Positions 1,679-28,500 are shown, counted from the stretch's first letter. The stretch is DNA of 64,000 bases from Nanobdellota archaeon (GCA_043818675.1 JBDRFR010000069.1:14877-78876); one strand, 5' to 3'. Notes: a model not told the origin generated them from the letters alone. Numbers and translations are program-made.

Positions 1679-1808
1679 TATTATGTTAAGATAAAAGGTA
1701 CTATTTATAAATCTTTCGATTTTGTTACCACCTCATAATGATTACAAAATAGGACATTATCAGACAAACTAATCTAATTTAAATATGATAAATTAATTCC
1801 TGATTATA

Positions 1809-5133: not shown

Positions 5134-5200
5134 GGCAAATACATATAAATTACAATATACAACTTAGTATGTACATATATACAACTATAGGTGAGAGGAT

Positions 5201-5704: not shown

Positions 5705-6303
5705 TCAGTGAAATACTGCCGCTTACCAAAAATAAACTTGAGATTTTTAAATATATTTACGAGAAAAAAGGGTCTCATCTTTTGGATATATCAAAAAATC
5801 TAAAAATACACCCTTATAGTGTTCAAAAGACCTTAAAGTCTATTAAGAAATTGTTTGTCGAGAAAAAAGCAGGAAGGACAATTATTTTGTCACTTGATAA
5901 GAACCTTCCAGGTTATTTTGAACTTCTTTATCTAATTGAGGACTATAAGCTTACAATTGATAGTAAAGATTTGAAAATACTGATAAGAAATCTGAAAGAA
6001 TTCTTCTCCAAAGATAAAAATGTGCTAAGTTGTGTTTTGTTTGGGTCATTTGCGCGGAATGTTTCTGGTGAAGATATTGATTTACTATTTTTGGTTAAGA
6101 AGAGATCAGATTATGTTATTGAAAAATGTTCCCAGCTTTCAACATTATTTGGAAAAGAAGTATCTCCTTTAGTCATGTTAGAAAAGGAGTTCAAGTCTGC
6201 TTTACAAAGTAAAGAGCCAACTATTATATCGATATTGGAGCCTTCTCAGCGGCTTTTGGTTGTCGGAAAAGAATACTTTTTGAGGTTTAGTTATGATGGA
6301 TAA
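5701..6303 (+). CDS. wHTH + minimal nucleotidyltransferase (MNT-like) protein (200 aa)
   Basis: NTase signature VLFGSFARNVSGEDIDLLFLV (GS...D-x-D) preceded by a winged-helix-like N-terminus (LEIFKYIYEKKGSHLLDISKNLKIHPYSVQKTLKSI). It is paired with the HEPN gene. Confidence 0.65.
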   Translation: MISEILPLTKNKLEIFKYIYEKKGSHLLDISKNLKIHPYSVQKTLKSIKKLFVEKKAGRTIILSLDKNLPGYFELLYLIEDYKLTIDSKDLKILIRNLKEFFSKDKNVLSCVLFGSFARNVSGEDIDLLFLVKKRSDYVIEKCSQLSTLFGKEVSPLVMLEKEFKSALQSKEPTIISILEPSQRLLVVGKEYFLRFSYDG

Positions 6304-7225: not shown

Positions 7226-7518
7226 GGAAATTAAAATGAGTAGTAGGCCCGTCTATCCTACTGACCGTATCAAAGGCACGGGGTTCGTCAGGACCTGTTC
7301 CTCAATGAGTAATAAGATTATGGGGCATATAAAATTTTTGGAAAAAATGGATGGATTTAATGTAAACTGTTTAAAGAAAATTATGCCACGATTCTGGGAA
7401 AAAAATGTCTCTATGATGGGAACTAAAATAGGTCTCGATATTGGGAAAAGTTTTGGATTTTTTGAATTGGTTTTAGAGTTTATTAAGGTTGGATTAAGTT
7501 TATTTTGCATAAAAGAGG

Positions 7519-10500
7519 TTGATTATGGCTGCTAGTTGGTTGAATAAAGCAGGGAAAAGTAAGGTTTTGGTAGCTTTAGCTTTGTTTTGCTTACTGTTAG
7601 GGATGTTTGGCGTAGGGTTATATAATGTAGGAGCCAGTCAAGACGAACTACTAATTGAAAGAGAGAACTTGATTAATGAGTTAGGGAATTATTCATATTT
7701 ACTAAACACATCACTTAAGATTGATCATATATTTGTTGAGAATTATTCTTGTTCTTCAGTTGGATATCATACTGTTAAGGTTTTGACAGAAGGAGTGCAT
7801 GATCAATTATTTAAGTTTGGTGATGTTAATGCGTCAGCGCATAATCTGGCAACGTATTCATCCAGTATAACCAATAACACGATAATATGGTATCATTTCA
7901 ATAATGATTCTTCTGTATATGAGAATTATGGAACTGAAGAGTTAACTGCAGAAGATAGTATGGTTTTATTATTCCACTTTAACAATGATTCTAGTGTTGG
8001 TGAGAATGATACGCATGTTTATGATTTTTCAGGGAATGGGAATAATGGAACTGTGACAGGTGCTGTTTATAATTCTAGTGGGAAGTTGAATGGAGCGTTT
8101 GAGTTTGATGGTGATGGGGATTATGTTGGAACAAATTTTAATACAGATATCCAGAACTTTACTGTTTCTGTTTGGGCTAAAAGTCTGTCTGCTCCAACAA
8201 CAGGGGGTGTATATACAGCGGTTCTAGGAAGGGAGGAGAATTTTATTATTTACTGGGATGCTACAAGTGGCACATTTGATGCTACTGTTGCTTATAGGAA
8301 TTCAGCGGTTGGATGGACAGCTTCTGATTTTGGTCCTGTAAGTGCGAATGTATGGTATCATATTGTTGGGACTTACAATGGAACTACTTTGATTACTTAT
8401 AGAGATGGTGTTGAAATAGACACTTCTACATTTGGAGTTCCTCAGAGTACTTCTGATATGTTAGCAATAGGGGATTCTAGGGTTGGAGCAGGAAATTATT
8501 TCAACGGCTCAATAGACGAAGTAGCAATCTGGAACAGAAGCTTATCCGCAGCAGAAATAAAAGGCATTTACATGAGAGGGCTACCTGCACATGTTTATGA
8601 TTACTCACAATATAATAATCATATAAAAGCCAACAAAACTGATCCGTTTGAGCCAACCTTTACAGCAGCAGGTAAATATAATGGAGCGTTGGAGTTCTCA
8701 AAAGATGATTATCTAATTAAGGACAATTTCACATTAGTCGGCGGAAACGGAACAATATCATTCTGGTTCAAGCTCAAAAATAATTATGATTCAGCCAAAG
8801 ATAAACATATGATACCTTGGGAATACAGGGAAGATGATACCCCAAATAAAATGGTCATCAGGTTTGACGCAGGGACTGGCCAGTTAAGGCTTATAACATA
8901 TCCAGGTTCAGATGTACTGACAGATTCAGATGCAACTTCTTGGACAGCAGGTGTCTGGCATCATGTTGCATGGGTACATAACACTACCCATACTGTGATG
9001 TATGTAGATAATGTGTTACAGTCTGATGTTGACACAGCAACAGTTTGGTGGAATGACTTTGCAACAGAAAATAGTACGCTGTATATTGGAGCCGAATATT
9101 ATAGTGGAAAAATACAAAGTTACTTCAACGGAACAATAGACGAATTTATGTTATTTAACAGAAGCTTATCAGCAGCTGAAATATCAGACCTTTATGGTGG
9201 AAAAGCAATAACAGGATTGACTATATGGGATGATTCTGATAACAAGAAAGTATACGCAAATTACACTAAATTCTATGCAGACTATAATGACTCAAGCGCT
9301 AAGACAGCCATATACGGCGGCGGAAGATGGTGCGAGTTTGCGTTTAATAAGACAAACCTAGACTGGAGCATATATACCTACATCAATATGACCTTTAACC
9401 CCAACACATTAAGATATGAATTGATAGCCGATGGCGGTTATTTCAATAACCAGACAGAAAAACACATAGATGGTATGCCAGCTGGACAGTATTATTATAA
9501 TATATCCTGCTATGATGAGACTGGAGTTTATCAGAATGTTTCAGTTGTTGATTTTGTTAATGTTTCTGAATATGATACAGGTTTAGGTATTACGACAAGT
9601 GTTACTGCGCCTGATGTTAACCAAAATGTTATTTTTTATGCAAACTATTCAAGAAATGATGTTTGGGATGTTGATAATTGGGTTTACGGTAATGAGATTG
9701 GGAGGGTTGTGTGGAATAGTAGTTCTATAGGTAATGAAAGATATTATGATGCTATCCCGGCAGTGTTTGTTGATTTTGACAACGATGGTAAAAAAGATGA
9801 ATTTGTTATCTCTGATGGTAACTCAGGGACAATATATCCTTTTTATTCAAACGGTTCACAAATGGAATGGACAAACACACAACAAGGATATGACTCTGCA
9901 GAAATATCTGTTGGAGATTTGGATAGGGATGGTTATGAAAATGAGATAGCAGTTGGAGATTGGCTGAGCGGAACAAGTGATGTGATAATAATTAATGAGA
10001 CAGGTGCAACAGTCTGGTCAGCTGTGAGTAATGGACAGCCAATATATGCTATTGAAATTGATGATTTAGAAAATGACGGATCTCCAGAAGTTGTATTCGC
10101 TAAGACTACAGTCTTAAGCGTCTATAATATGACTGGCTCAGAAATTTGGAATTATACTCTGCCAAATTATGCTTTGGAAATAAGAATGGCGGATGTTGTG
10201 GGGAATGAAAATAAAGAGATTATTGTAGCTACTGCTTATGGGGATAAATTGATGGTATTTAATTCCTCCGGTACTAATTTATGGAACTATACTAATGGAA
10301 ATGATCCGATTTCGATTGCATTCGCAGATATTGACCATGATGGTGTTGATAACATTATTACAGGGATGAGGACCGGAAACCAAGTATATGCAATGAATGG
10401 TTCAGGATCTATGCTTTGGGGAGGGAGTAGTCTTAGCGGAGTTGCCGGACAGATAAATGAGCTTGCCACTATGGATTTGGATGGGGATGGGTATGAAGAT

Positions 10501-13500
10501 GACATTGTGGTCGGAGACCAAGCTGCTGTTAAAGGATATGATAACGATTCAACCAATCTATGGAATTTTAATTTACCCTCGGATGATATATCCTCAATCT
10601 CCGTAGGAGACATCGATAGCGATGGTGATAAGGAGATTATTGCAGGGGGCCTTACAGACGGTACAGTATGGGTACTTAATAGAACTGGCAGCTTAGAATT
10701 TAGCTATAAAATTGGAACCGGCCATATTGGAAATACCTTCTATGCAAGCTCTCCATCAACTGATATTTCTGATGTTAATAATGATGGAATAAATGATATA
10801 GGTGTTGGTATCTATCTAACTAGTGATGATAGTTATGGATATATCTTCCAGGACGTCTCCTGCACAATAAAATTCAACGATTCTGCAACTATTTATAACA
10901 TGACATGGGATTACGTTACTGACAAATGGAATTACTCAAGAACGTTTTCGAATAATGTTGTCTATGCATATAATGTAACCTGCAGTAAAGGTGGCTATGT
11001 AACTCAAATCCAGGAATCAACAGTTGATTTAACACAGACCTTAATAATATGGGACGACTCTAACTCAAAAGTAACATATGCAAATTACACCAAATTTTAT
11101 GCAAATTACACCAAATCAAACGGAACCCCATTGACAGGCAGCGGTGAATGGTGCGAGTTTGCATTCAATAAAACAGGCCTTAACTGGAGCTTTTATACCG
11201 CCTATAACATGAGCTATAATCCAACTACAAAATTATACGAGATAATTGCTGATGGCGGCTATATTAAAAATAACACAGAATCGCATATTGGCGGGATGCC
11301 TGTTGGCAATTATAGCTTTAATATTTCCTGCTATGGCGGCAAAAACTTAACAGCAACAGACACAGTAAATGTTGCTAAGTATGATACAGGTTTATCTTTA
11401 ACACAGTCAAATGTTCATGCTGATATTAACACAGATGTTGAGTTCTTTGCTAATTACACAAGAGATACTGTATGGAATGTGGACAACTGGTTCAGAGATT
11501 CAGGAGAAATTGGCAGAGTTATATGGAATAGCAGTGATGTTGGAAACAGTCTTGTTGCACTAAGACCAGCTGACTTATCTAATGACGGATATCTGTCTGA
11601 TATAGTTACAGTAAATGACTACAAGATTATTGCACACTATCAAAACGGATCAGTAAGGTGGACTTTTTCAACTGGAGTTATCCAACAGGCAGGATCCTTA
11701 AACATTGTCAATCTGGATAACGACGGATTTAAAGATGATATAATTACAAAATTCTCTTATAACATATTTGTCCTTAATAAGACTGGTGATCAACTAAACA
11801 AAACAACTGTTGCAGACGGCGGTTGGGGAATTGGAGTTGCTGGTGATGCAAATAATGACGGAATAGAAGATGAGTTAGTAGTATCAGGCGTAAATTCTAA
11901 TCCGGCAATATTATACAATATATCTAACAGCGGACTTTCTGTTGTTAAACAATGGAATTTTTCAGTACCAGATGATATGAGGGAAGTAATATTCGGAGAT
12001 TTTGACTCAGACGGTTTGGATGATGATTTTGCAATTAGTGGAGTTGATTCAGGAAAAGGAACTTATGTTTATAAATGGAACGGGACAAATTTATTTAATG
12101 TAACTTATGGTGGACTTGCTATTGCCAAAGCTGATATTGACCATGATGGTTTTGAAGATGATATAGTGATTGCAGAAAACGGCAATTATCTTGTTTATTC
12201 TTTTAATGGAAGCTATAATACAAAATACACAAGCACAGATGAAGCAATGGTATACAATACAGATCCAATATCAGTATCCGCAGAGATGATTGTACTGGAT
12301 TTGGATTCAGACGGATTTAATGATGACATCATACTGGGAGATAGAGGCGGAGCAGCTGGACCTGGAATTGTCTGGGCATTTGACAACAATAGTATTGGAT
12401 TGTGGAATATCACATTACCTGCAAACGGAGATGATGATTACATCTATTCCATGGTCGTTGATGATTTTAATAACGATGGTAAACAAGAATTGATCTTTTC
12501 CAGTGAAGAGTTTGATAAAGTTTATGTTGCCAATCTGTCAGGATATGTACTTTGGGACCAGATCATTGGACAAGGAGATATCTCAGTGATTAAAGGAAAA
12601 TCTCCTGGCATCATAAGTATTGACATAAATAAAGATGGAATTTCTGATTTTGCGACCGCTTCCGCAAATGGTTTTGTCCATGTTCTGCAGGACGTATCCT
12701 GCACAATCCAATATGAATCAGAAGGTGGAGAGATTAACAGGACTGGTCAGAATTGGGAAAATGGTTTAGTTGCTCTATATCATTTTAATAATGAGTCTGC
12801 ATATGGCGAAACAACTGTTGGAGTTAATAATGTAACGTATGACTTTGCACCAGGTCACTGTTATGATAACGAAACAGAAATACTAACTAATGAAGGCTGG
12901 AAATTATTTTCAAAATTAAATAAAACTGAGCAAGTAGCAACATTAAATCAGGAAACAAAAGAATTGGAATGGCAGCATCCAATGGAATATCAAGAGTTTG
13001 ATTATGACAATGATATGTATAAGATTATATTGGAGGATGGATCAGATTTACTTGTTTCAGAAAAACATAGGGTTTATGGAAAATCAGTAAGCATCATCGT
13101 GATGAGTGAAATCTTCAAAGATGATCTTATTTTCTCTGACCTGGAAAGTCAGGACAAAATGCCCCACATGAACTCTTTTGAGATGGCTCAAATCCCCTTT
13201 GAGGTTCTTAAGGTGATTGATGGTGACAATATCCATTTCAGAAATTTGGATAATTTTTCTACTCAAAGCTTTGAAGAGAACAGGGTCTTTTCTCTTAATC
13301 TTGATCAGAGCCTTATCAATCTTGGAAATGTCAATATTCATAATTCATCCAGCCACTTTTTTAGTTCTTCGGGAGTCATTGCCTTGCCTTTAGCTGGGTC
13401 TTTAGATATTTTCTTTAACTTTTCTATGAACTCAGGCTTCATAGGAAATTCATCTAATGGATGCCAGTCAATAGATTCACAAAACTGCTCATCTTCCCTA

Positions 13501-16500
13501 GTTAGTTTCCTTGATACACGAAATTCTTCAAATATTCTTCGCTTGTTCAATTCCTCTCTAGCTGCTTCAGACCAGTTTATCCATGGAAATGCTTCAATTC
13601 TTGCCTTAAAGGATTTGTCTACAGGATATATTATACTAGCCATTTATAATTCACCCCTTGCCCTTAATTTTTCTAATGCTTCTAATTTCTTAAGCACACC
13701 CTGTTTTGCAACTTCAGACCAATTAATGTCAGGATGCTTGTCTAACTTTGCCTTAAAATCATCAGGTACTGATATAGTAAACCTTTCCATTTTTGATGCC
13801 TCCTGGATGATACAAGATAATAAAATTTTGGGTTCATCCAACAATTGTATTACTAAACACAATTGTGTTTATAAATCTTTTGATAATTTCAAGTTGATGC
13901 CTATAACTGATGCGTATGGGCTAATCAATTCAGGAAAACAGGTTTATTTCCTGGATGGTTTTAATAATGAGGTTAAAGTTAAGTCGATTGTTAAAGAAAA
14001 GTACAATGGCAGAATATATGATGTCGATGTAAAAAATGATGTTGTTTTGGTAAGAAGGATTGATAGGAATAATCGCACAAATAATTATGATAAAAAAGCC
14101 ACGCAAGCAGGAAAAAATTCATGCCACAATTCTGGGAAATATTGTTATGATAAAAGGACTAAGGAAAACTTCTTTTCTGAAAATGAGGATGGTTTGGGTA
14201 TATTGAGTGAGAGGGGTTATGAAACTAATTATTATGGTATATGGTCTGGGAATAGCAATAACGGAACTATTTATGGTGCTACAGTTGATATGACTGGTGG
14301 GAAGTGGAATGGGAGTTTGGAGTTTGATGGGGCGGGGGATTATGTTGATGCTGGAGATACATTTGATATGGGAACAAATGATCTGTCATTATCTGTATGG
14401 TTTAAAACATCTGATAGTGGTTCAAAAATTAAAACAATTATTTCAAAATCTTATGCATGGGATACAGGTGCATATAATTTGATTATTACTGCTGGTAATA
14501 ATCTAAGACTTCATGCTGAGAATAATACTGGTCAGGGTGAAGTAGATATAATAAGTCCTCTAACTTATACTGATGGACAATGGCATCATGCAGTAGGTAT
14601 TTTTGATAGAGATAAAAATGCAATATTATATGTTGATGGATCTGAAGTTGGTTCAACAACAATGGCAAATATTCTTAATCAGGATCTGGATACTACCTAT
14701 TCATTTAGAATTGGAATGTCACATTGGAATAGTTGGCCCAGACCTTTCAACGGCTCAATAGACGAAGTTGCAATTTGGAACAGAAGTCTTTCTGAATCTG
14801 AAGTCTGGGACTTGTACATGTCGTCAGCACCAAAATATAACATGACATGGGACTATACAAGAAAGAAATGGAACCATACAAAACAGTTCACTTCATACGG
14901 TAATTATACTTACGGAATAACATGCGAAAAAGGCGGCTACACAACCCAAAGAAGCTCAAGTTATGTTGATCTAACCCAATCATTAACAATATGGGATGAT
15001 TCTGATTCAAAAACAGCCTATGCAAATTACACCAAATTTTATGCAAATTACATAAGATCAAACGGAACAGCAATGAACGGAAACTATTGGTGCGAGTTTA
15101 AGTTCAATAAGACAGGCAGATGGACAAAACCAGTCAATATGAGCTTTAATCCAGTAAGCTTACAATATGAAATAATTGCTGATGGCGGATATATTCAGAA
15201 TTCAACTGAAACGCATATTGACGGGATGCCTACTGGAAATTACAGTTACAATATCTCCTGTTATGGTGGTGAATATAAATCACTAACAGATACTGTAAAT
15301 ATAGCAAAATATGATACTGCACTTGCTTTAACCCAAACAAACATCCATCCAAATACCTATTCAGATGTTGAGTTCTTTGCTAATTACACAAGGGCTACTG
15401 TATGGGATGTAGACAACTGGTGGTGGGATACAACTGAGATTGGGAGGGTGGTTTGGAATACAAGTGCTCTTGGAGGGAGTTCACATACTGTTGATTTCTT
15501 TGATTGTTTGAATAGTGGAAAGAAAAATTGCCTTGCGACCACAGAATATTCTGATATCTGGATGTTTTATCCAAATGGAACACAGATTACAGCATCTGGA
15601 ACTGCCTCAAATCCAGGAGGAGATTTATTAGATGCTAATGTTTTTGACGGAGATGGAGATGGTTATGAAAATGAGGTTCTTATTGTTGGAGATAATAATC
15701 AGGTTTTAGTTGTTAACGAGACAAGAAATACTGTGTATACCTATACTGCTGGAGGAGATATTTTTTCTGTTGTTGGAGCTGATTTAGATAACGATGGAGT
15801 CAAAGATGATTTTGTTATTGGTGCTTATACTGGGTCTGTTTATCAGGTCATGGCATTTAATACTTCTGATGGAGTTAATTGGGTGAATTTTTGGAACGGA
15901 ACTGTTGGAGGAGTTATTCAGGAAATGGTTATTGGTGACTTTGATAGAGATGGAAGGGAGATTGATGTTGCTGCTACAGGGACTTCGAATGGAAATGTTA
16001 CTGTTTTTGTTGGGGATAATGGAACATTGATATTTAGTACTGTTGACCTTGGGGCATTATCTTCACTTACAGTGTCTGATTTGAATCATGATAATTACAA
16101 TGATGAGATAATCGTGGGGGAGACGGGTGCCACTAGGGTTCTTGCGTTTAGGTGGAATGGGACATGGGGAGCAGAAATGCAAGATACAGACAATGATACT
16201 AATGGTTGGCTTTGGTCAAACACTCTTCCAACATACAGTATTACTGAAATTGATACTTTTGATGCAGATTTAGATGGTTACAAAGATGAGATTATTTTTG
16301 AAGATGGAGGCAGTTCATCAAACTCAAAAATTTGGGCAGTGGATGAAGAGGGCAACTACTTGTGGAATTTTACATGGGGGAACACAATTGATGTTTCATA
16401 TAGTCTTAATGTTGCTGATGTGAATAACGATGGAAAGGATGAGATAATTTTTGGACCTAGGAATGCTGCTACATTGTATGTTTTGAATATCTCTGGAGAT

Positions 16501-19500
16501 TTATTGTGGAGTTATCCTCTTAATCAGGGTTGGATTGGTAATGCTTATGGAACTTCTCCAGGGATAGATATTTCAGATTTGAATAATGATGGTATAAATG
16601 ATATTGTAGTTTCAACTAATACTGTGGGTTATAAATATATTTTCCAAGACGCTAAATGCTCAATCCAATACGAATCAGAAGGCGGGGAGATTAACAGAAC
16701 AGGTCAGAATTGGGAAAATGGTTTAGTTGCTTTATTTCATTTTAATAATGAAAGTGCATATGGCGAAAACAGCAGCTATATTTATGATTTCTCAGGTAAT
16801 GATAACAATGGAAGTTGTACAGGTACAACATGCCCAACCTTTGATACAACTAGTGGAAAGTGGAATGGTAGTTTTGAGTTTGATGGCGTGGATGATTATG
16901 TTGCAATGTCTCAGGATGATAGTCTAAATTTTTCAGGAGATAGTGAGATTACCATTTCCTTTTGGGCTAAACTTGTATCAGCAGATAATAGGCATGCTGT
17001 TATTGGGGCGTGGGATGGTGAGTCTGGTTCTACTTCTGCTTATCTCTATATGGACAATTCTGGAGCTAATGGAATTATTATCAAGAATACAATAGGAGGT
17101 GATACTGGAATTAGAACATCAAGCACATCTTTTAATTTAAACACTTGGTACCACATAGTTTATACTTTTAATGGTGTCTTAGAGACAGTCTATCAAGATG
17201 GCACTCAAATTGATACAAATGATATAAGTGGAACCATGCGTAATAATGGTGAGACAGGTCCTTGGGTAGGTCATGCAATGAATGATGGAACAACTCCAGT
17301 ATATTTCAACGGCTCAATCGATGAAATCGCAATCTGGAACAGATCATTATCCGCATCAGAAGTTTGGGATTTGTATATGTCATCAGCACCAAAATATAAC
17401 ATGACATGGGACTATACAAGAAAGAAATGGAACCATACAAAACAGTTCACTTCATACGGTAATTATACTTACGGAATAACTTGCGAGAAAGGCGGATATA
17501 CAACTCAAAGAAGCTCAAGCTATGTTGATCTGACTCAGTCATTAACTATATGGGATGATTCCGATTCAAAAACAGTCTACGCAAATTACACCAAATTTTA
17601 TGCAAATTACAAAAGATCAAACGGAACCGCATTGAACGGTAATTATTGGTGCGAGTTTAAGTTCAATAAAACAGGTATATGGACAAAACCAATCAACATG
17701 AGCTTTAATCCGGTTTCCCTACAGTATGAGGTAATAGCAGATGGTGGATATATCCAAAACTCAACTGAATATCACATTGACGGTATGCCAAACGGTTATT
17801 ATGGGTATAATATAACATGTTACGGTGGTGATTATAAATCATTAACAGATATGGTCAATGTTTCTTTATATAATACAACTTTGGGAGTCAGCAGGAATAA
17901 TCTTGCGCCAGAGGTGAACGTTGTTACAACATTTTATGCAAACTATACAAGAAATGATGTATGGGATGTTGATAACTGGAAATTGGGACATGAGATTGGG
18001 AGGGTTGTTTGGAATACTAGTTGTCCAACATGCGGCAGTGTTTCTGCTATACCTGAATTTGTAGACTTCAATGAAGACGGTAAGAAAAGTGAATTATTCA
18101 TTCTTGCTGATGGTTTCCCTTATGCTATTTCAAGTAATGGTTCTAAGATCTGGACAAGTTCAACAGAGAGATATGTTCCTAGCCAAGCAGTAGCTTTTGA
18201 TGGAAATGGAGATGGATATGATAATTATGTTGTTGCAGTTGAGGATGTAAATTCTGGTTCAGGTATACGTGTGTATAACAGTACAGGGAATATCATTTGG
18301 GAATGCGGCTTTCCCGGAGACTTTATGTCTGTTGTTGCAACTGACTTAGATAATGATGGAAAGAAAGATGATTTTGTTGTAATTGATACATATACTCCTG
18401 TGGGTAATGTTTCCGCATATACTACTACTAACGGGCAAACATGGGTGATTAATTGGAGCCATATATTTCCAGCGACTAATACCGCAGATGGATCTATTAA
18501 GATAGGAGATTTAGACAACGATGGAAAAAAAGATGATTTTGCAATTGCAGGTGTGGAATATACGATTGCCCTAAATGAAACTGGAGGCGTTATATGGAAC
18601 ACAACTGACTTAGTTGATAGAGTAAATGGTGTTGGAATTGGAGATTTTGACCATGATGGTTATGAAGATGATGTGATTGTAGGGAATAGGGGATATTTAT
18701 ACATCTTCACTTTTAATGGAACTTATGGAGTTACATATACTACAAATGATGCAATTGCATCTTCTTCCTACCCTAACAGTGGAACACAATCAACTGTTAC
18801 TAGTATAGTTGTATTTGATTTGAATAATAATGGATTTAAAGATTCATTTGCTTTATCAGACATAACATATGATTCCATAGGTGTTTTTGACAACAATACT
18901 AATAATGTTTGGTTCCACAATACAAATGATTTTGGTGATGGAAGCATAGATGTAAATACTGTACGGGCAAGTGATTTTAATAATGATGGCAAAGATGAAC
19001 TGATGTTTGGTGCAGATAACGGGCTTATATATATTTTTAACAGCACAGGTTCTCTTTTGTGGAAATATGTTTTGATAGATCACGTGGGGGAGTCTTCTAG
19101 AGAGGATGCCGTTAAATCAGGCGACATCAATAATGATGGAATCTCTGATTTTGTAGCTGTCACTGTGAATTCTTACACTTACATATTCCAAGACGTATCC
19201 TGTTTCATAAGATTCAACGATTCAACATCAGTCTACAACATGACCTGGAACATAACTTTAGACAAATGGCAGTACCAAAGGACATTTCCTGACGTATCAA
19301 GATATAAATACAACATCACCTGCTCAAAAGGCGGATACATTACACAGTTTACAAACACTTCTTTTGCAACAGAAGACGGAAACCCAAGATGGAGTTCAAA
19401 TAAGACTAACCTAACAAGAAATTCACCATATTTAGCAGATGTCCATTTCAACATTACATTAAATGACATCAATCCAGCATCATACATATTCAGCTGGTAT

Positions 19501-22500
19501 AATGGGACTGCATGGGAGAATAATTCCCCTGTAAGTTATGATGATAATACAGAAATCTCTGTTACAAAAACATTAAACATAAGAAACGAATCTGCTGCTA
19601 TCAGCTGGACATTCTACTTTAATGATACTGTTGGAAATAATAATCAAACAGATGTATGGAGCATTACAGTTGATAATATACTGCCAAGGATAGATTATTC
19701 AGGTGGAACTAACGCAGATGGCGAAAACATAGCTAAAAATTATATTTATGTCAATGTATCAGTTACAGAAGAAAATGTTGATAAGGTATGGTTTAACCTG
19801 TACAATGATGATTATTCTTTGAACAAAAGCATGATACATGGTGAGTTACCAAATTATAGACCTGAGACTTATATTAATATGACCGGCAATGTACTTTTAA
19901 TGCATTTTAATAATGACAGTTCTGTTAGAGAGAATTCAACACATGTTTATGATTGGTCAGGTATGGGGAATAACGGGACTGTTTATTTTAATTCATATCC
20001 AAACCTAACAAACCCTAAGCTTGGTTTAGGAGCATTTTCATTTGACGGAACTGATGACTTTATCAATATATCTGACGTTCCATCATTAAGGTTAACTTCG
20101 ACAGGTACAATATCTATGTGGATCAAACAAAGCGGTGCAGACCAAGATCCATACGCTACATATGTAGGAAAAACCAGGGGTGGTGTGACAGCTACAATTG
20201 CATATATTCTTTACCATAGAGATTCAGAAGGTACAATTAGGGGAACTATCTGTAATGATGCTAACTGTGACTTGATCCAAACACAGGAATTTGCTCAATC
20301 AGATGTTGATTGGCATCATCTGGCATTTACATGGGACAGCGTAAACTTATCTTTATATAAAGACGGCATTTTGTTTAATAAGACCCCTCAAACCCGAAGC
20401 GTAGATAATGATGCAGGAGATCATCTCAAGATTGGCGGATATGGTTTCAATGATGTGGGAAGTGATGATTTCAGCGGTTTAATGGATGAGGTTGCAATCT
20501 GGAACAGAAGCTTAAGCGCAGATGAAATAAGAGACATATACGAGATCCAGAAATCTGCATATTACCATAACTTTACAGTATCAGACGGAACATATCATTA
20601 CAATGTTACAGTCAATGATACTTCTGGTAATCAAAATGTTACAGCAACAAGAAGTGTTTCACTGGATCCAACTTATCCTAAAGTTTCATTTGTCTCTCCA
20701 ACTTATAGTGATGGTAAGTTTACTAAGAATACTTCTATTCCAATAAATGTAACAATAACAGAAGCTAATCTTGACAGGATAATATATGAATGGGATGGTG
20801 TTAATGAAACAGACTTCAAGCTGGATGCGCCAATAACTGAAGTAAACTTTACAGTCTCAAGCTTAGAAACTTTAACTGTAAGTAACGGTTCCCATAAGAT
20901 TGATCTGTTTAATGATAGTTCTCTTGTGTTGGCTATGAGTTTTGATAATTTGTCTGCTCTTGGAGAGAATGATACTCATGTGTTTGATTGGAGTGGGGGT
21001 GGGAATAATGGGGCTGTTTATGGAGGAACTGACGCTGATTCTGGTTTCACAACGAGCGGGAAATATTCAGGAGGACAGATGTTTGATGGGGAGTGGGATT
21101 ATGTTTTTGTTAATGATTCAGATGTATTCAGTGGAAATTTGGCGATATCTTTATGGATAAATGCAAAACAATGGAGTACAGATGGAACACTGGTAAGAAA
21201 ACTAGATGAGTGGCAATTAGATATTAATGATGGTACTGTGGTTAGATTTTGTGATACTGCGGCATGTAGCGATATTGCTACTTCTGAATTGAGTTTAGGT
21301 AAATGGTATCATGTTGTGGGAATTAGAAATAGTTCTGGAGTAGAGTTATTTGTAGATGGGATAAGTCAAGGATATGTTGCAGACCCAATTGCTTCAAGAA
21401 CAACTAGTCATGTTTATATTGGTGCAGAGGAAGGAGCGTTTGACTTTTTCAACGGCTCAATAGACGAAGTAAGAATCTACAATCGTTCTCTTTCTGCCTC
21501 AGAAGTTGCAATGCTTTACAAATCTAATCTAAGAAAATACGACGTAAACAAATATAATTTATTTTTCAACCAATCAGGAAATTTCAGTTTAACCTACAAC
21601 ATTAATCAAAACACAACAATCAACCTAAGAAAAAACAGCACCAGAAACTACTGGCTGGATATCAATAAGCAAAGTTTAGCTGATGATTCCTACGCTTACA
21701 GAGTATTTACAAAAGACGACATGCAAAACTGGAACAGCACAGAGCAAAGAACAGTAAATGTTGACCTGGAAAGCAGGATTGTATTAGGCGATGACTCAAA
21801 CAACAAAAAAGTTTATGCTAACTACACAAGATTCTATGCAAACTTTACAGATGTTGAAAACAATACAATAAACGGTTCAGGGTATTATTGTGAGTTTGCT
21901 TATAATAAAACAAACCTGGCATGGAACAGATATACAGTAACAAACATGAGCTATAATCCAATTACAACACAGTATGAAATCATAGCAGATGGTGGATATA
22001 TACAAAATGCAACAGAGAGTCACATTGATGGAATACCTGTAGGACTTTATTATTATAATATAACATGCAAAGACTCAAGCGGGGGCTACACAGCAATCTC
22101 AACTGTTGACCTTGTTAATGTTTCTGAATATGACACAAACATAGCAGTAACCCAATCAAACATCCATCCAGATACAAACGCAAATATCGAATTCTTTGCA
22201 AACTATACAAGGGATACTATGTGGGATGTGGATAACTGGTGGTGGGATACTAAAGAAATCGGAAGGATTGTGTGGAATAGTAGTGAATATGGTGCGCTTT
22301 CAGATACTGTGTATTTTGTTAAGGCTATGGACTTAGATAATGATGGAGAAATGGATGAAATTGTTATAGGGGGTATACCCACCATGGAAGCTTTTAGTTC
22401 AAATGGAAGCTGGATTTGGTCAAAAGCCGTTCATAATTATGATACACATTTTGAAGTATGGGATCTAGATAACGATGGCTATAAAAATGAAATCTTAACA

Positions 22501-25500
22501 GGAACAAATGGGGGCGATGTAAAAATTATTAATGAATCTAGTGCAAATGTTGCAGTATGGAATAGTTATAGTTATGGGAGTAATGGGGGGACTATGATAT
22601 TAGGAGATCTAGATAATGATGGATTTAAAGATGATTTTGTAGCTGTAATAGATACAGGCAGCGTTAGAAAAATTCTTGCTTGGAATACCTCAGATTATGT
22701 AACCTGGGTCAATTTTTGGAATTATAGCCTTCCTCATGACATTTATATAGATCAATTAATAGTATCTGACTTGGATGGTGATGGGGATGATGATATCGCA
22801 GGCTCGGTCACTGCAAATGATCCAAGATCGTATACGTTTGCCTTAGTAGGACACAATGGATCCGTACTTTGGAATACCACATCCAATTATGACCAACTTT
22901 GTTATTCATTGATTGCTTTAGATATGGATCATGATGGACTTAAAGATGATATAATTACCGGTTGCACAGGAGATATACATAATTTTAGTTTAAATGGAAC
23001 TTATGGAGCAACATATACTCCTTCGTTATTTAATAATTCACCAACTGGAAATATTTTAGAAATAGCAGCGATTGATTTGGACAATGATGGATATGAAGAT
23101 GAGATTATTGTAGGTGATACAGGAGTTTATAACACTGGTCCAGGATATGTAAGAGCTTTTAATAAAAATGGAATTGAAGAATGGAATTTTGAATTGCCTC
23201 CCACAGGTATTGCTGATGGGGACGATATTGCATCGCTGGTTGTGGGAGATGTGAATAGTGATGGGAAAAAAGAAATAGTGTTTGGTAATGAACAGCTTGA
23301 TACAATTTATGTTTTAAACAAATCAGGATCATTATTGTGGGAATATAAAATTGGATTAGGTAATATCGGATCATCAAGCGATGAATCACCAGGTATTGAT
23401 CTGACTGATATCAACAACGATGGTATTCTTGATATTGTAGCTAGTTCACTAACAGGTTATGCACACGTTCTTCAAGATACAACATGTACAATTCAATACG
23501 AATCAGAAGGCGGAGAGATAAATAAAACAGGAACTAATTGGGATGATGGACTTGTAATGTTAATGCACTTTAATAATGAATCAGCATACGGTGAAACAAC
23601 AGCCGGAATTAATAATGTAACATATGACTTTTCAGGTAATGGCAATAACGGAACAATATATGGTGCAACGTTTAATGCAACCGGTGGTAAATGGAACGGA
23701 AGCTTTGAGTTTGATGGGATTGATGATTATATTGAATTAACAGATATGAACATTAATGATGAATTCACAGTTTCAATGTGGTTCAAAGCTAAAAAGTTAC
23801 AAGACGGCGCTACTTTAATTGGTGATTTGGACAATATTGGAGGTAATGAGGGTTGGTCCATAAGATACTTAACTTCACTAGGTAATGAATTGCACTTCAG
23901 TTTTGATGGAACTACATGTGGATGGACCAATTACGACCTTACTGGGATTAATCCGGATAATGACAACACTTGGCATTTTATTTCTGTTGTCTTTACAAAC
24001 AATACTGTCTCTTGGTTTTATGATGGAACTACTGAAGTTGATAGTCACAGTCAGCAATGTGTAGTTGAAGATTCTAATGAGAATATCAAAATTGGCGTCG
24101 CTTCCAGAGATACTTTCCCAATAAGTGCAAGCGGACACTTCAACGGCACAATCGATGAAGTAGCAATCTGGAACAGATCATTATCAGCTGCAGAAGTTTG
24201 GGACTTATACATGTCATCAGCACCCAAATACAACATGACATGGGACTATACAAGAAAGAAATGGAACCAAACAAAACAGATAACGACATACGGCAACTGG
24301 ACTTATGGCATAACATGCGAGAAAGGTGGATATGTAACCCAAAGAAGCTCAGGTTATATTGACATGACTCAATATTTGACAATATGGGATGATTCTGATT
24401 CAAAAACAGTTTATGCTAATTACACTAAGTTTTATGCTAACTACACAAGATCGAATGGAACTGCATTGAACGGTAACTATTGGTGTGAATTTAACTTTAA
24501 TAAAACTGGAATTTGGACAAATCCAGTCAATATGAGCTTTAATCCAACAACAACACAGTATGAAATAATCGCTGACGGCGGATACATACAGAATTCAACA
24601 AAAACGCATATTGACGGGATGCCGGTTGGAAATTACAGTTATAATATAACATGTTATGGTGGGGATTATAAGTCTCTAACTGACACAGTTAATATTGCTG
24701 AGTATGACACAGTTTTATCAATACTTAATGATACAGATAAAACTGTTGGAGAAAAGATAAAATTCTATGCTAACTATTCAAGAGTTGACCCATACAAAGT
24801 AACTAACTGGAAATTAGGTAAAGAGATTGGGAGGATTGTTTGGACTGATAATTTAACAACTGACACAGAATTGATATCTATTACGTCTTATGATATGGAT
24901 AAAGATGGAAAAAGAGATGAACTTGCAGCTGCGGTAAGGGATCAAAATACCGGAGAATTAGCCTATTTTTATCCAAACGGTACATATAAATGGATCTATT
25001 CAGTTTCCTGGGATTTTACAGAGAGCATATTTGCAGGAGATTTAAACGATGATGGTTACTATAACGAGATATATTATCCAATGGTGGGTGAACCCGCAAT
25101 ATTTAATGAATCAGGAGACCAGGTGTGGACAGGCAGCATCACTTACCCGGCAATGCAGTTTGAGGGAGCCTTACTTCTGGATATTGACGGAGACGGACAA
25201 AAAGATGATCTGGTTGTGGTAAATGCTACTGGTGTGTTTGCATATAATACATCTGATGGGATTACCTGGCATAATTTATGGAACTATTCTCACCCAATCA
25301 GTCTTGGCTTAAACAATCTGTGGGATGCTGCTTCAGGAGATCTGGATAATGATGGTAGAGATGATATTCTGTTGGGAACATATCTCCCTCCCAATTTATA
25401 TGTGATCAATTCCACCGGTAGTCAAATGTGGAATTATTCCTACATACAATACGGACTGGCAGTTGAATTGATAGATCTTGACAGTGACGGCAAAAAAGAT

Positions 25501-28500
25501 GAAGTTATCCTGGGTAGTCTATATCAAATTATCCATGGTATAAATGGGTCTGGCGGACATCTGTGGAACATATCTGGCGGAAATCTCAGGCATTATGAAC
25601 TTAATGTTCTTGACCTGGATGATGACGGATTTGAAAATGATTTTGTTGTAGGTGATGCCAATGGAAATGTCACAGCATATAATGCTTCTCTGACAAACCA
25701 TGACATGATGTGGTCAATTGATCTAAACGGGGTAGGGGCTAATGATATCTATTCAGTTTCAAATGCAGATATAAATAATGATGGAATAAAAGAAATTCTA
25801 GTGGGTGGAGAAGATGCAATTTTATGGGTTTTAGATAAGTCAGACGGAAGTGTCCTGTGGGATTATACTGTCGGAACAGGAGACATTGGATCAGGGGCTG
25901 GAAAATCCAGAATAACAACCACAGATATAAACAATGATGGAATAAACGAGATTATTGTGGCATCACGAACAAACGCACAAATCCACACCTTCCAGGATGT
26001 AAACTGCATCATAGAAATCAGCGACGGAACATCAGCTGACATGAATTATAACTCAACCTCCAGAAAATGGGAATACAATAAAACATTCATTATTGCAGCT
26101 GACTACGAATATAATGTAACCTGCACAAAGGGAGGATATACTGAACAGGTACAAAGCTCTACTTTATCAGTTGCAAGCTTAAGGACATATCATCAGCCGT
26201 CAGCTGTTTATTCAAACTATACAAGGTTTGTCGCTAATTTCACTGAAGGCACTGGCAAATGCAGGATGAAATACAATAAGACAGGCATATGGAGCAGCTG
26301 GCATAACATGAGCTGGAATGGGACGATAAACGCGTTTGAGCTTGAAGCTGACAATGGGTATAGAAGAGGGCATATGCGCTCAATGCCGGCCGGAACTTAT
26401 GACTATTATATTGACTGCAATAACTCTTTAGGCCAGGCTGTAAATGCAACAGATTCGATAACTGTAAATGATTATGATACAAACCTATCAATATCAAACA
26501 CTAATAATAATCCAGTTATCGACCAACCTATCATTTTCTATGCTAACTATTCAAGAGTTGATCCATACAAAGTAGATAACTGGAAATTAGGAAATGAGAT
26601 TGGACAGGTTGTATGGAATACAAGTGATATTGGCACAAATGCAAATGCGATCGCAGCCATTGACCTGAACAATGATGGAAAGAAAAATGAGTTAATAATA
26701 GTAATGGACAGTGATATTACTGGCTTGTATGCAAATGGCAGTGAGAAGTTCAGCCAGACTTCTGGCATAGGTAATTCAATCTTAGATATAGCTGTTGGTG
26801 ATTTTGACAATGATGGTTATGAAAATGATTTTGCAATTGTAAGAGGCGCAAGCACCCTCGAGGTGTTTAATGAAACAGGCCAGGAAGTATGGGAAAGCGG
26901 CGATTACGGATCTACGCCTGCAATACCGGCTATAGGAGACTTTGATGGAGATGGCATCAAGAATGATTTCTTTATGATGGATGGCGGAAGTGTTTTTGTT
27001 TTTAACTCAACAGAAGGAAAGGTTTGGAGCGAGAGATGCAGCATTACGCATGGTGCCAACGTTTATGCTGGATATGATGCTATAACAACTAGAATTTATG
27101 ATTCATCTAAAGATGATATAGTTTTTGTTTCCAGTGAGAATAGTGCAACACCTGGCATTTGGGCGATTAATACATCATCTATTGGAACATGCAAACAATA
27201 TTATAATGGTTCAGGGAATTTATTTAGATCACTTGATGTTCTGGATATTGACCATGATGGAATTGAAAATGAATTTGTTGTAGGTGAAAATGGAGATGTA
27301 CTTGTATTTAATTTAAGCTTAGATATAATCCTTAGTGATTCTACACCTGATGATAATATTTGGGAGATCAGAAAAATTGACCTGGATAATGATGGATTTA
27401 AGGATGATTTTGTCGCTTCAGAAGATAATCCTCCAAGAATCAGGGCGTATGATAATAATTCTGATTTGAACTGGACATTTAATACTGGCGAATCTGCAGG
27501 AGTGTCTATCTTTTCGATGGAAATAGCTGATGTTAATAATGATGGAATAGAGGATATTTTATTTGGAACAAGCACTGGTATTGTTTATGCTGTTAATATT
27601 AGTGGAAACTTAATGTATAAATATGATATTCAATTAGGAACAATCGGAAATGACAACTCAAGAGCTTCATCAACAGACATCTCAGACATAAACAACGACG
27701 GAATAAATGATGTAGCAGTTGCATCCTTTGATGGCTACGCACACATCCTTCAGGATTCATCCTGCACTATAAAATTCACAGACGGATCATCATACAACAT
27801 GACCTGGAACATAAGTAAAGACAAATGGCAGGCAAACAAATCATTCAGATTAGCAGGGACATACAGCTACAATATTACATGTAATAAAGGCGGATACATA
27901 TCACAAAACCTAACTGCAAGCATTACAGCTGCAAAACAAGGTTCATTCTGCGATTGGGGAAGCTTAGCTACAACATGCCATATTAATACAAGCATAACTG
28001 TAAAGAATAACTACCAATTAAACGCATCCAACATAATAATCCATGAGCTTGGAAACCTATACAATAATTCAGGCATAAGCTTCATAATAAATCTAACCGG
28101 AAACCTAACAATAAAAAGCAGCGGAACAATCAATTTATCCGCAGCAAACTGCGCAAGCGGAACTTGCACAAACGGCGGAAACCTGACAATTATTGCATCC
28201 ACATTCAACCTAAGCAGGGGTTCATTTATTTATTCCAATGGCGGCTCTTTAACATCTGATGGAACCAAGGGTGGTAGTGGAGGAATAATAAATATCACAG
28301 CCAGATCATTCTATTTTGACGGAAATATAACATTAGATGGTGGAGATAATGCAGGAACATACAGTACTGGAGATGGAGGCATAGGTGGCACCATGGTTAT
28401 AGATGTTAATACCAACCTTAACATAGGTGGTAATCTGCTTGGAAAAGGCGGAACCGGAAGATCAAACATCTGCGCTGCAAATAGCGGCAGCAGGGGTAAT

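Follow-up and report, generated by a model that had tools for sequence, protein, structure and literature searches.

Giant membrane-anchored surface proteins of the SPEARE type have been described in Nanohaloarchaeota, e.g. SVXNc_0300 with 9,409 aa (PMC10266531). They combine an N-terminal signal/anchor, two WD40/PQQ-like propellers in series near the N-terminus, an Ig-like array, one transmembrane (TM) segment and a VirB4/HerA-like ATPase, and they end in a tail for which a coiled coil has been described. Among propeller proteins, the small, secreted bacterial proteins Bap1 and RbmC of Vibrio cholerae associate one eight-bladed propeller with a lectin domain (in Bap1 a beta-prism inserted within the propeller), and the propeller binds exopolysaccharide directly (PMC10102183; PDB 6mlt). 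Integrin alpha heads, made of FG-GAP repeats with DxDxDG Ca loops, have seven blades, form a heterodimer with a beta subunit and, in some integrins, host an inserted alpha-I domain. Finally, canonical inteins (PI-PfuI, 1dq3; PI-PkoII, 2cw8) are hosted by replication/repair enzymes and carry an in-frame homing endonuclease, and the penultimate His is usual in inteins; mini-inteins and bacterial intein-like (BIL) domains also belong to this comparison.

Here we analysed a stretch of 64,000 nucleotides (the window) from a metagenomic contig whose source, on sequence evidence, is one of the tiny symbiotic DPANN archaea, of the Nanoarchaeota/Woesearchaeota type; its aRF1 is 100% identical to a protein of a Nanoarchaeota MAG. 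The window encodes a giant protein in which seven propellers are nested in a chain of small Ig-like sandwiches. We considered this architecture, the history of its parts and an intein residing in one of its LamG domains.

A giant surface protein with seven nested propeller units

All seven units are contained in one ORF, the frame of which is open for 36.3 kb (Table 1). A Kyte-Doolittle scan of the whole protein gave two hydrophobic segments only, one at each end of a region in which 580 sequons give a density of 5.0 per 100 aa, where 1.95 would be expected; past the second segment the density falls to 0.45 per 100 aa. The domain found there was assigned by Pfam to DUF87 (43.6 bits, cut-off 23.2) and HerA_C (33 bits, cut-off 22), with TrwB_AAD_bind and FtsK as weaker matches, and is followed by a K/E-rich tail reaching the end of the ORF. 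The remainder of the protein is largely made of Ig-like, CARDB or NPCBM_assoc arrays (Pfam). The propeller array is the distal third of a heavily N-glycosylated, membrane-anchored giant surface protein, which matches in layout the SPEARE-type blueprint described in PMC10266531, where a signal anchor precedes a glycosylated ectodomain that is joined through a TM segment to a cytoplasmic HerA/VirB4-like ATPase. It differs from that blueprint by its FG-GAP-type, eight-bladed propellers, seven in number and nested in Ig-like domains, by its numerous LamG domains, of which three are nested, by the intein, by its length of 12,098 aa and by a tail that is K/E-rich where a coiled coil was described. 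A second VirB4-like ATPase gene, the neighbour of SPEARE genes, was not recognisable downstream of the giant ORF: the ORFs at 43858-44919 and 44886-45770 had no Pfam match, and the minus-strand AAA gene at 45751-46971 resembles RFC/clamp-loader genes.

Table 1. Coordinates of the features discussed, numbered from the first nucleotide of the window
Feature	Position (nt)	Strand	Protein position (aa)	Details
Giant ORF	7519-43815	+	12,098 aa	start TTG 7519; first ATG two codons on, 7525
N-terminal hydrophobic segment	7558-7629	+	14-37	signal anchor or signal peptide; Kyte-Doolittle scan
Unit 1	9217-11031	+	567-1171	A 9217-9585; split sandwich, N piece 9586-9693; propeller 9694-10848; C piece 10849-11031
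Unit 2	11041-14973	+	1175-2485	A 11041-11394; B piece 11395-11505; propeller 11506-12687; C strand 12688-12750; nested LamG 12751-14832, intein-interrupted; tail 14833-14973
Intein in unit 2 LamG	12859-14253	+	1781 (Cys1) to 2245 (Asn)	-1 His, +1 Ser; in LamG_3 motif D.SGN/GNNGT
Antisense ORF 3, RelE/YafQ-family toxin	13084-13341	-	85 aa	TIGR00053 E=3.4e-9, full length
Antisense ORF 2	13338-13643	-	101 aa	conserved across the cassette family, 50-62% identity in L001, L042, L043; weak DUF2683, E=2.5e-4
Antisense ORF 1, RHH/VapB-like antitoxin	13644-13790	-	48 aa	from ATG 13790; NCBIfam NF050799 E=1.9e-5; Pfam RHH_1 E=0.02
Homogenised junction tract	14745-15300	+		last LamG strand, split-sandwich tail, linker, A domain
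Unit 3	14983-17532	+	2489-3338	A 14983-15324; B piece 15325-15435; propeller 15436-16644; C strand 16645-16707; nested LamG 16708-17391; tail 17392-17532
Unit 4	17542-19371	+	3342-3951	propeller 17992-19188; without nested LamG
Insert between units 4 and 5	19372-21777	+	802 aa	Ig-like domains alternating with two LamG
Unit 5	21778-24366	+	4754-5616	propeller 22255-23472; nested LamG 23536-24225; tail 24226-24366
Unit 6	24376-26172	+	5620-6218	propeller 24823-25992; without LamG
Unit 7	26173-27930	+	6219-6804	propeller 26596-27750; A domain most divergent (~40% identity); without LamG
Intact sandwich copies 1 to 3	29773-30009, 30457-30663, 30742-30990	+	7419-7497, 7647-7715, 7742-7824	joined-half HMM
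Intact sandwich copy 4	35566-35769	+	9350-9417	joined-half HMM
Second hydrophobic segment	42361-42429	+	11615-11637	membrane anchor (TM2); hydrophobicity scan
ATPase domain, best DUF87 stretch	42505-42879	+		cytoplasmic HerA/VirB4/FtsK-like P-loop ATPase; Walker A GATGSGKT

The initial annotation had described a seven-fold, propeller-centred repeat of fixed order, and our analysis agrees: each of seven diagnostic motifs occurs seven times with its order kept, a tiled self-BLAST, serving as self-dot-plot, shows collinear units over aa ~570-6800, the unit starts lie at most 9 nt from those first proposed, and the units are joined by regular linkers of 0-3 aa. What did not stand was the parse into three new small domains of 110, 55 and 65 aa. 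The 55-aa and 65-aa stretches are two halves of one domain, as an HMM of the two halves joined together matches four uninterrupted downstream copies with alignments crossing the junction (18.7-45.2 bits, the maximum over 200 shuffles being 7.0 bits). Some 20 residues of the 55-aa stretch (W.VDNW...) were modelled with low confidence (pLDDT <50) as a linker that leads into the first strand of the propeller. The 110-aa domain (A) is itself a paralogue of the split-sandwich family (hhalign probability 97%, E=1.9e-11), and in HMM-HMM comparison with the split and intact copies its E-values were 1e-10 to 1e-11 at the same probability. The three supposed domains belong to a single family, which occurs here in a contiguous and a split form and has an invariant Cys pair; the family has no match in Pfam-A, but other proteins contain it too (702 matching cluster representatives among 1.84 billion).

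Each unit consists of two tandem copies of this Ig-like beta-sandwich family, the first (A) contiguous and the second split by the propeller, which is nested after its first strands ('FYANYT'), i.e. in the first loop. The AlphaFold2 (AF2) model, taken on the LamG-free unit 1 (pLDDT 81.5, pTM 0.79), displays a propeller of 32 strands and a split sandwich of 2+5 strands at pLDDT 83-94. Homology to the intact copies, the strand count and the high pLDDT suggest that the two halves pack together. The nested order recurs in four other proteins (P0001-P0004), in a distant archaeon and, within the family, in 15 of the 143 members. A closed propeller can occupy a loop because both its ends adjoin, and the backbone would therefore run from sandwich to sandwich as a stalk; rather than the beads on a string first envisaged, the heads are best seen as side branches.

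The distribution of LamG domains had been correctly reported (units 2, 3 and 5, two copies at unit 4, none in units 1, 6 and 7), but in units 2, 3 and 5 they do not follow the unit. They lie between the 'QD..C.I' strand and 'YNMTW', inside the former 65-aa domain, where the spacing is 716, 250 and 252 aa; units 1, 4, 6 and 7 have 14-16 aa at this place. These three LamG domains are nested in the loop next to the propeller-bearing loop of the same sandwich, and only after unit 4 are LamG domains, two in number, truly downstream, within the Ig/LamG insert. Over aa 1-7900, Laminin_G_3 (PF13385; cut-off 27.6) matched 4+3 stretches, at 308.6 and 206 bits. In the resulting picture, a stalk of ~14 sandwich domains would carry seven propellers and three LamG domains projecting sideways and rigidly held.

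Divergent propellers on a homogenised scaffold

Identity among the seven propellers ranges from 28 to 42%, and the unit 3 propeller has a closer counterpart in another genome (49%) than among its paralogues (at most 40%); judged from these sequences, the propellers date back to the split between the genomes. The scaffold behaves otherwise. A sharp-edged tract of ~550 nt, spanning the junction of units 2 and 3, shares 72-100% nucleotide identity with its paralogous counterparts at ~17304-17860 and ~24138-24690, against ~40-50% in the flanks. Scaffold segments identical at up to 100% of the DNA point to gene conversion; the scaffolds were homogenised later than the propellers diverged. Unit duplication, put forward initially as the origin of the array, is half of the story, the other half being this old propeller divergence and later scaffold homogenisation.

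Near-identical junctions in a metagenomic contig also raise the question of an assembly artefact, in which paralogous units of several genes or strains were chained via these tracts, three of which are 83-100% identical over 100-300 nt. We regard this as extremely improbable: over read-pair lengths the repeats are inexact (90% and 83% over 300 nt), the single frame stays open throughout, the propeller is unique in every unit, the short linkers are regular, and the deposited contig is an 89.7-kb sequence.

Propeller heads and the possible function of the array

The propellers are well recognised by FG-GAP_3 (PF13517; 139.4 bits, cut-off 26.9) and FG-GAP (PF01839; 51.8 bits, cut-off 22.1) over aa 1-4000, and these profiles pass their cut-offs for aa 3901-7900 too. 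Each propeller spans 385-406 aa and none contains an insertion. Strict D.[DN].[DN]G loops, predicted to bind Ca, number 6-8 per propeller at ~45-55 aa intervals, much as the 7-8 loops first counted, but the blades number eight, not seven. An integrin-alpha-type head, which needs seven blades, was rejected on that count. Integrin alpha and the present units share FG-GAP repeats with Ca loops and one ligand-binding domain nested in another; the propeller, however, is the host in integrins and the guest here, and no partner subunit is known for the archaeal protein. The closest adhesin analogue is Bap1/RbmC, with an eight-bladed propeller plus lectin, although Bap1 has its lectin within the propeller, whereas here the propeller is the insert, in an Ig-like sandwich with LamG in the next loop, and recurs in a seven-unit array of a giant archaeal protein.

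We hold it fairly probable that the whole reading is correct, i.e. a stalk with nested heads and an intein, the array most likely providing multivalent attachment to host cells or to glycans; the initial interpretation as potential binding heads is to that extent partly supported. The adhesin function is argued by analogy: the heads might bind host-surface polysaccharide or glycoprotein, as suggested by the propeller and lectin of Bap1/RbmC, seven heads might have seven different specificities, and the array could act together with the C-terminal TM anchor and the cytoplasmic ATPase, as proposed for nanohaloarchaeal SPEARE-type proteins.

Conservation across the propellers is concentrated in the loops, since 30 of 48 loop columns are identical in at least six of the seven, against 36 of 333 elsewhere. 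This pattern, mostly a Ca-loop framework, would also suit a mainly structural array, i.e. a glycosylated spacer or sheath (S-layer-like or filament-like) setting the symbiont-host distance, with propellers as rigid Ca-stabilised blocks, and so would the extreme sequon density and the predominance of Ig-like, CARDB or NPCBM_assoc arrays in the rest of the protein. We nevertheless find such a role unlikely, because a spacer has no need for seven propellers this divergent on a homogenised scaffold, nor for a lectin-type LamG nested beside three of them, and because Bap1 binds polysaccharide through its propeller (PMC10102183). A Pfam match to Beta-prop_CGLA, the lambda-carrageenase propeller (65.9 bits), could be taken as a sign that the propellers catalyse or bind substrate within a machinery that degrades polysaccharides and attacks host envelopes, a role proposed for the giant proteins of predatory Omnitrophota. 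That is very unlikely in our opinion, given that the match overlaps generic FG-GAP repeats for which FG-GAP_3 scores far higher, that among the Pfam matches along the 12,098 aa none is to a domain of a glycoside hydrolase, lyase or peptidase, and that conservation among the seven propellers is limited to residues of the Ca loops and framework.

The intein of the unit 2 LamG and its antisense operon

Unit 2 owes its length of 1311 aa to a 465-aa intein in its LamG, unnoticed in the initial annotation. Its host is thus a surface-protein LamG, not a replication/repair enzyme. The splicing regions, an N half of ~76 aa and a C half of ~60 aa, form a Hint fold with a ~60-aa spacer ahead of the last strand, and the centre (~265 aa) has no confident predicted fold (pLDDT 20-32). 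Profile scores were below cut-off for both TIGR01445 intein_Nterm (22.4 bits, cut-off 24.5, E=1.9e-4) and Pfam Intein_splicing (18.5 bits, cut-off 35.8). C1781, the block-B 'SEKH' His, N2245 and S2246 are kept in four homologues (P0049, P0051, P0052 and P0057). Instead of the usual penultimate His, a Gly is found, the C-terminus being ...WSGN/S in all members; some active inteins lack the penultimate His.

In-silico excision of the intein leaves a LamG of 229 aa, against 228 and 230 aa in the uninterrupted paralogues, with a conservation of 46-48%, against 47%. Such normal length and conservation imply that the unit 2 LamG is still used, and the intein most likely splices out. A different reading is that the Hint insert is autoproteolytic (BIL-/hedgehog-like) or dead, cleaving at aa 1780/1781 or staying as a bulky loop, and that the genes on its opposite strand are an unrelated mobile cassette tolerated at the site. 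We consider it doubtful, because every homologue conserves the catalytic residues (Cys1, block-B His, terminal Asn, +1 Ser), the insertion is always in the same conserved LamG motif, and excision restores an ordinary LamG.

Where canonical inteins carry an in-frame homing endonuclease, the slot is occupied here, on the opposite strand, by an operon of RelE/YafQ toxin-antitoxin (TA) type, across which the host frame remains free of stop codons. The operon is a putative type II TA module. Neighbouring ORFs either abut or share 4 nt, and the antitoxin ORF, which has GGAGG 8 nt ahead of it and TTTATAAA at 13875-13868, lies upstream of the toxin ORF. The toxin, scoring 37.2 bits against TIGR00053 YafQ, lies below the equivalog cut-off of 87.25; TTA, CTA and TCA codons are absent from its gene, as assessed from codon counts and a resampling null.

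A full-text literature search found no description of an intein with antisense TA cargo. Further archaeal contigs show it as well, some with cargo of PIN type (PIN_2 in a sister intein, 73 bits, cut-off 22.4). The same TA cassettes with open antisense frames are also present outside recognisable inteins (L042 and L043), so that residence in an intein at most partly explains the stop-free frame.

Repeat units and their nested domains

The seven-fold repetition of a propeller-bearing unit claimed in the initial annotation is real and well past chance. A tiled self-BLAST dot-plot confirmed collinear repetition over aa ~570-6800 of the giant protein, and seven diagnostic motifs, each occurring exactly seven times in constant order, confirmed the common domain order of units 1 to 7. 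The unit starts parsed from motifs and dot-plot (Table) lie within 9 nt of those proposed initially, and the FG-GAP/VCBS propeller and LamG identities agree with Pfam, which found FG-GAP_3, FG-GAP and Laminin_G_3. Units are joined by linkers of 0-3 aa, except that units 4 and 5 are separated by an Ig/LamG insert of 802 aa. For the unit alignment (MAFFT), the LamG-bearing units were entered as split rows and unit 1 was the one modelled; a LamG-bearing unit was rejected as reference because the 'YNMTW' tail of the LamG-free units was then misplaced.

Table. Features of the giant gene and related cassettes (nt positions in the window unless a relative locus is named; aa numbering of the giant protein)
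Feature	Position	Strand	Remark
Giant ORF, 12,098 aa	7519-43815	+	encloses the entire seven-unit array
Unit starts, units 1 to 7	9217, 11041, 14983, 17542, 21778, 24376, 26173; last unit ends 27930	+	motif/dot-plot parse
Intein, 465 aa (aa 1781-2245)	12859-14253	+	within LamG of unit 2
Three abutting ORFs (RHH / 101-aa / RelE-YafQ)	13084-13790	-	opposite the intein's central stretch
RHH/VapB-like antitoxin	13644-13790	-	E=1.9e-5
Conserved 101-aa protein	13338-13643	-	role unassigned
RelE/YafQ-family toxin	13084-13341	-	TIGR00053 at E=3.4e-9, full length; 37.2 bits, below the 87.25 equivalog cut-off
Second TM, then cytoplasmic ATPase (Walker A GATGSGKT) and K/E-rich end	42361-43815	+	like SPEARE proteins of Nanohaloarchaeota
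Same toxin-antitoxin cassettes in relative loci	L042:3001-4110; L043:1180-3954	-	5' ends of giant surface-protein genes

While the repetition stood and part of its interpretation was retained, the initial domain parse, i.e. 110-aa, 55-aa and 65-aa domains around each propeller with LamG domains after some units, had to be revised. The 'QD..C.I' strand and 'YNMTW' are separated by 14-16 aa in units 1, 4, 6 and 7, but units 2, 3 and 5 have 716, 250 and 252 aa there, respectively, so that in these three the LamG sits inside the 65-aa segment rather than after the unit. Nor are the 55-aa and 65-aa segments separate domains. Uninterrupted domains with the pattern 'FYANYTR...C.IYFND...M.Y...YNRTF...G.Y.WN..C...Y.TQ' occur downstream, and an HMM of the junction (last 25 residues of the 55-aa piece fused directly to the 65-aa piece) matched four intact domains (aa 7419-7497, 7647-7715, 7742-7824 and 9350-9417) in single alignments crossing the junction, with scores of 18.7-45.2 bits, whereas none of 200 shuffles exceeded 7.0 bits. 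The two pieces are thus halves of one domain of ~85 residues, with the propeller between them (the split domain). The 110-aa domain opening each unit (the A domain) belongs to this small family as a paralogue with two longer loops, according to hhalign comparisons with the split copies (probability 97.3%, E=1.9e-11) and the intact copies (probability 96.7%, E=3.3e-10). Two cysteines are invariant across the 4 intact and 7 A copies, at the aligned positions of an Ig-like B-F pair. The three small domains therefore reduce to one family. No Pfam-A family was matched by either the A domain or the intact domain. This defines a small beta-sandwich family missing from Pfam and provides a clear natural case of double nesting, a single ~85-residue domain hosting a propeller in one loop and a LamG in the next.

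The propeller fold held in an AF2 prediction of unit 1 (alignment of 23 sequences; mean pLDDT 81.5, pTM 0.79), the outcome of no propeller having failed to occur: 32 strands, in 8 blades of four, were predicted over residues 164-544, whereas 7 blades would be expected of an integrin-type head. Strict D.[DN].[DN]G loops number 6-8 per propeller and are spaced ~45-55 aa apart. The N-terminal piece of the split domain was modelled as two strands (pLDDT 83-93), its C-terminal piece as five (pLDDT 86-94) and the 12-residue 'W.VDNW' linker at pLDDT <50. Judging from the homology to intact copies, the strand count and the model confidence, the two pieces would pack into one seven-stranded sandwich.

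Divergence within the array and distribution among relatives

Pairwise identity between units is 28-42% for the propeller proteins and ~40-50% for their DNA, and synonymous sites in the propellers are thus saturated. The A domains share 54-87% identity (~40% for unit 7), and the split-domain tail is 100% identical between units 2 and 3 and 83% identical in unit 5. A sharp-edged tract of ~550 nt, which runs from the last LamG strand through tail, linker and A domain, shows 72-100% DNA identity among the junctions of units 2/3, 3/4 and 5/6, and identity drops to ~40-50% in its flanks. Near-identity at every codon position goes beyond the effect of purifying selection alone and marks these tracts as products of recent gene conversion or segmental duplication. 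P0001, an orthologous fragment of a different genome, has a propeller with 49% identity to unit 3 vs at most 40% for the paralogues, so that divergence of the propellers predates, or roughly coincides with, the separation of these genomes. At least six of the seven units are identical at 30 of 48 columns in the Ca loops vs 36 of 333 elsewhere in the propellers. At the sequence level, the array thus presents itself as old, diversified heads carried on a scaffold that is kept uniform, and this combination of old propellers and freshly homogenised scaffolds would bear on how arrays hold mechanical uniformity yet vary specificity.

Relatives of the whole unit are few and mostly fragments (P0001-P0004, 33-41% identity), although P0003 is apparently complete; one bears the label Pacearchaeota. 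They have in common the order A domain, 'FYANYT' strand, propeller and 'C...FND..YNMTW..C.KGGY.TQ'. Two tandem propeller-in-sandwich modules without A domain were found on a distant archaeal contig (L003, 26% identity), which identifies the nested module as the conserved core. A GTDB scan with the generic pattern D-I-N-N-D-G-I gave mostly propeller-only relatives among the matches listed. The small-domain profile retrieved, from 1.84 billion, 702 cluster representatives at E<=1e-3 and 110 at E<=1e-10, many of the matches being 2,000-7,500 aa long. According to an HMM count, which is conservative (5 of 7 true units recovered in the control), at least one nested module is present in 15 of 143 family members and at least two in only one member besides the giant protein.

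Membrane topology and proposed attachment role

The giant gene occupies 36.3 kb of the 89.7-kb contig. Its neighbours are archaeal and encode aRF1, an M50 protease and an RFC-like AAA protein. As the aRF1 has 100% identity to a protein of a 'Nanoarchaeota archaeon' MAG, and its relatives carry the labels Woesearchaeota or Nanoarchaeota, the source organism is a DPANN archaeon (GC ~36%). The giant gene is closely preceded by overlapping HEPN (5201-5704) and nucleotidyltransferase (5701-6303) genes, a pair that resembles a HEPN/MNT-type toxin-antitoxin module.

Strong hydrophobicity is confined to two segments of the giant protein (aa 14-37 and 11615-11637). Between them lie 580 N-x-S/T sequons, i.e. 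5.0 per 100 aa vs 1.95 expected from composition, and the density is 0.45 per 100 aa across the 448 residues C-terminal to the second segment. In this C-terminal tail, DUF87 and HerA_C score above the Pfam cut-offs and mark a HerA/VirB4/FtsK-like P-loop ATPase. Taken together, the hydrophobic segments, the sequon contrast and the ATPase indicate a membrane-anchored ectodomain, predicted to be heavily glycosylated, with a cytoplasmic ATPase. A ten-glycine run (SSGGGGGGGGGGSG, ~41560-41600, aa ~11352-11364) between the last extracellular Ig-like domains and the membrane-proximal region may serve as a flexible hinge.

Attachment to a host is the way of life of DPANN archaea, and the means by which the host is recognised and held are largely unexplained. 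The array belongs to an already-known class, the giant DPANN adhesin-type surface proteins, from whose known members it is distinguished by the double nested-domain design and the uncatalogued small domain family. The overall blueprint equals that of the SPEARE-type surface proteins of Nanohaloarchaeota, i.e. signal peptide, propellers, ~75 Ig-like domains, TM, VirB4/TraG-like ATPase and coiled coil, for which a role in host attachment and possibly transfer has been proposed (PMC10266531). Proteins of more than 10,000 aa are rare in Archaea, and at 12,098 aa the present one exceeds the 9,409-aa protein named the largest of any cultivated archaeon (PMC10266531). The nearest structural analogue of the propeller head is found in Bap1/RbmC, whose 8-bladed propeller binds exopolysaccharide directly and to which a lectin domain is joined by insertion (PMC10102183).

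The units have propellers, and three of them also LamGs, nested in small sandwich domains. By analogy with the SPEARE blueprint and Bap1/RbmC, we infer that the seven units form a multivalent attachment array, in which a stalk of ~14 Ig-like sandwiches would carry seven Ca-dependent propeller heads, each of different specificity, and three adjacent LamG lectin-type domains, all as rigid side branches. Three rival explanations were listed, namely that the array is a structural spacer, that the units are a polysaccharide-degrading enzyme, and that the array is an assembly artefact. The attachment array offers a concrete, testable design, i.e. a uniform Ig-like stalk bearing seven divergent Ca-propellers and three lectin domains as nested branches.

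Other repeats occur downstream of the array. Directly after unit 7, Gly/Asn-rich internal repeats (~27940-29390, aa ~6810-7290) with 'GG.G' motifs appear beta-helix-like by eye and had no Pfam match; GC skew flips sign in this region, and a 176-aa minus-strand ORF (28311-28841) probably arises from the repetition itself. A second and younger repeat family consists of four to five LamG-like copies in tandem (~31800-34300, aa ~8100-8930), some pairs of which are >85% identical in the dot-plot; short repeats of ~35 aa ('ATIDS.RISN..R..FSYIY') follow. A further family comprises three to four tandem repeats of ~200 aa ('RN.SA.G.TT.TR...SVW.EI.KPD', ~35700-37700, aa ~9400-10050) that are 45-65% identical, with a weak MG2-like Pfam match.

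A probable intein in unit 2 and its antisense cargo

In the dot-plot, aa ~1800-2200 resemble no other part of the giant protein. The intein located here begins at '...YDFAPGH/CYDNETEILT' and ends at '...YYGIWSGN/SNNGTIYG', thereby splitting the conserved LamG_3 motif 'D.SGN/GNNGT'; if spliced, the predicted ligated peptide is YDFAPGH-SNNGTIYGATVDMTGGK. In-silico excision left a LamG of 229 aa in unit 2, close to that of unit 3 (228 aa) and unit 5 (230 aa); it is 46-48% identical to these two, which are 47% identical to each other. NCBIfam intein_Nterm gave E=1.9e-4 at a score below its cut-off (22.4 vs 24.5 bits), and blocks A and B aligned with the DnaE N-intein 4lx3. AF2 modelled the N half (residues 1-76) and the C half (residues 343-403) at pLDDT 70-87, and residues 77-342 at pLDDT 20-32 with no confident fold. 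A full-length homologue, P0049, is 43% identical over 100% of the query; this protein and three further relatives (P0051, P0052 and P0057), all LamG proteins, have the same intein ends and the same odd central translation. A Pfam Intein_splicing match was also obtained in P0222, an aRF1 homologue (503 aa, 83% identity; relative of window 47045-48142), so inteins also reside in housekeeping genes of related archaea.

Opposite the central stretch lie the three abutting minus-strand ORFs of a toxin-antitoxin (TA) cassette (Table), the RHH/VapB-like one preceded by GGAGG, 8 nt from its ATG, with a TTTATAAA box also upstream. Pfam alone gave only sub-threshold matches for the TA ORFs, which were assigned with the help of NCBIfam and the PIN_2 cargo of a sister intein. 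Related contigs carry comparable cargo: L001 has two inteins, one with the RHH/100-aa/RelE trio and the other with PIN_2 (E=3.7e-20) and an RHH-like ORF, and a third intein, that of L044, likewise carries PIN cargo.

The host frame is stop-free across all three ORFs, i.e. at least 260 codons, and the toxin ORF contains no TTA, CTA or TCA codon. Antisense frames of 18 other genes in the window have 0.036-0.073 stops per codon, and their longest open run is 170 codons. An estimate from stop density (P ~1e-5 to 1e-8) was discarded as too optimistic: with the proteins unchanged and their synonymous codons drawn anew according to local usage, 18 of 20,000 trials (~1e-3) left the host frame stop-free. 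Under the same null, the recurrent cassettes of the L001/L044 set gave 6/20,000 (3e-4) and 314/20,000 (1.6e-2). Over the same nucleotides, the minus-strand proteins are 70, 50 and 51% conserved vs 55, 47 and 31% for the plus frame. These patterns may be read as selection on the TA proteins, together with additional selection holding the host frame open.

Tentatively, and with slightly less belief than doubt, we propose a family of LamG inteins in DPANN surface proteins in which the homing endonuclease has been swapped for an opposite-strand TA operon acting as an addiction module, with ~0.7-0.8 kb read both ways. The stop-free plus-strand filler would be translated along with the rest of the giant protein and, given an active intein, removed by splicing, and the addiction module would guard the intein, and hence the 36-kb gene, against loss in a minimal genome. 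This arrangement is the most novel element of the locus; no description of inteins with antisense TA cargo was found in the full-text literature searched, a search of limited coverage. If true, it would represent a novel type of nested selfish element and be among the longest antisense dual-coding arrangements known in prokaryotes. If functional, it would link three classes of selfish/overlapping genetic elements, a link likewise without description in the literature searched, and would affect gene calling, the TA genes being now masked by the giant ORF.

The same cassettes, three in a row in the case of L043, also occur in two relative loci, where the opposite plus frames are open for 317-604 codons. 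Hint motifs are absent at both L042 and L043, and the plus-strand ORFs start with a duplicate of the surface protein's N-terminal peptide ('MSIIKTKRKEK...'). Intein residence as the sole reason for the stop-free frame is weakened by these loci, which indicate that a stop-free antisense strand is a property of the cassette family that intein residence does not fully explain. Cassettes with such a 'stealth' antisense frame may also insert directly at the 5' ends of giant surface-protein genes.
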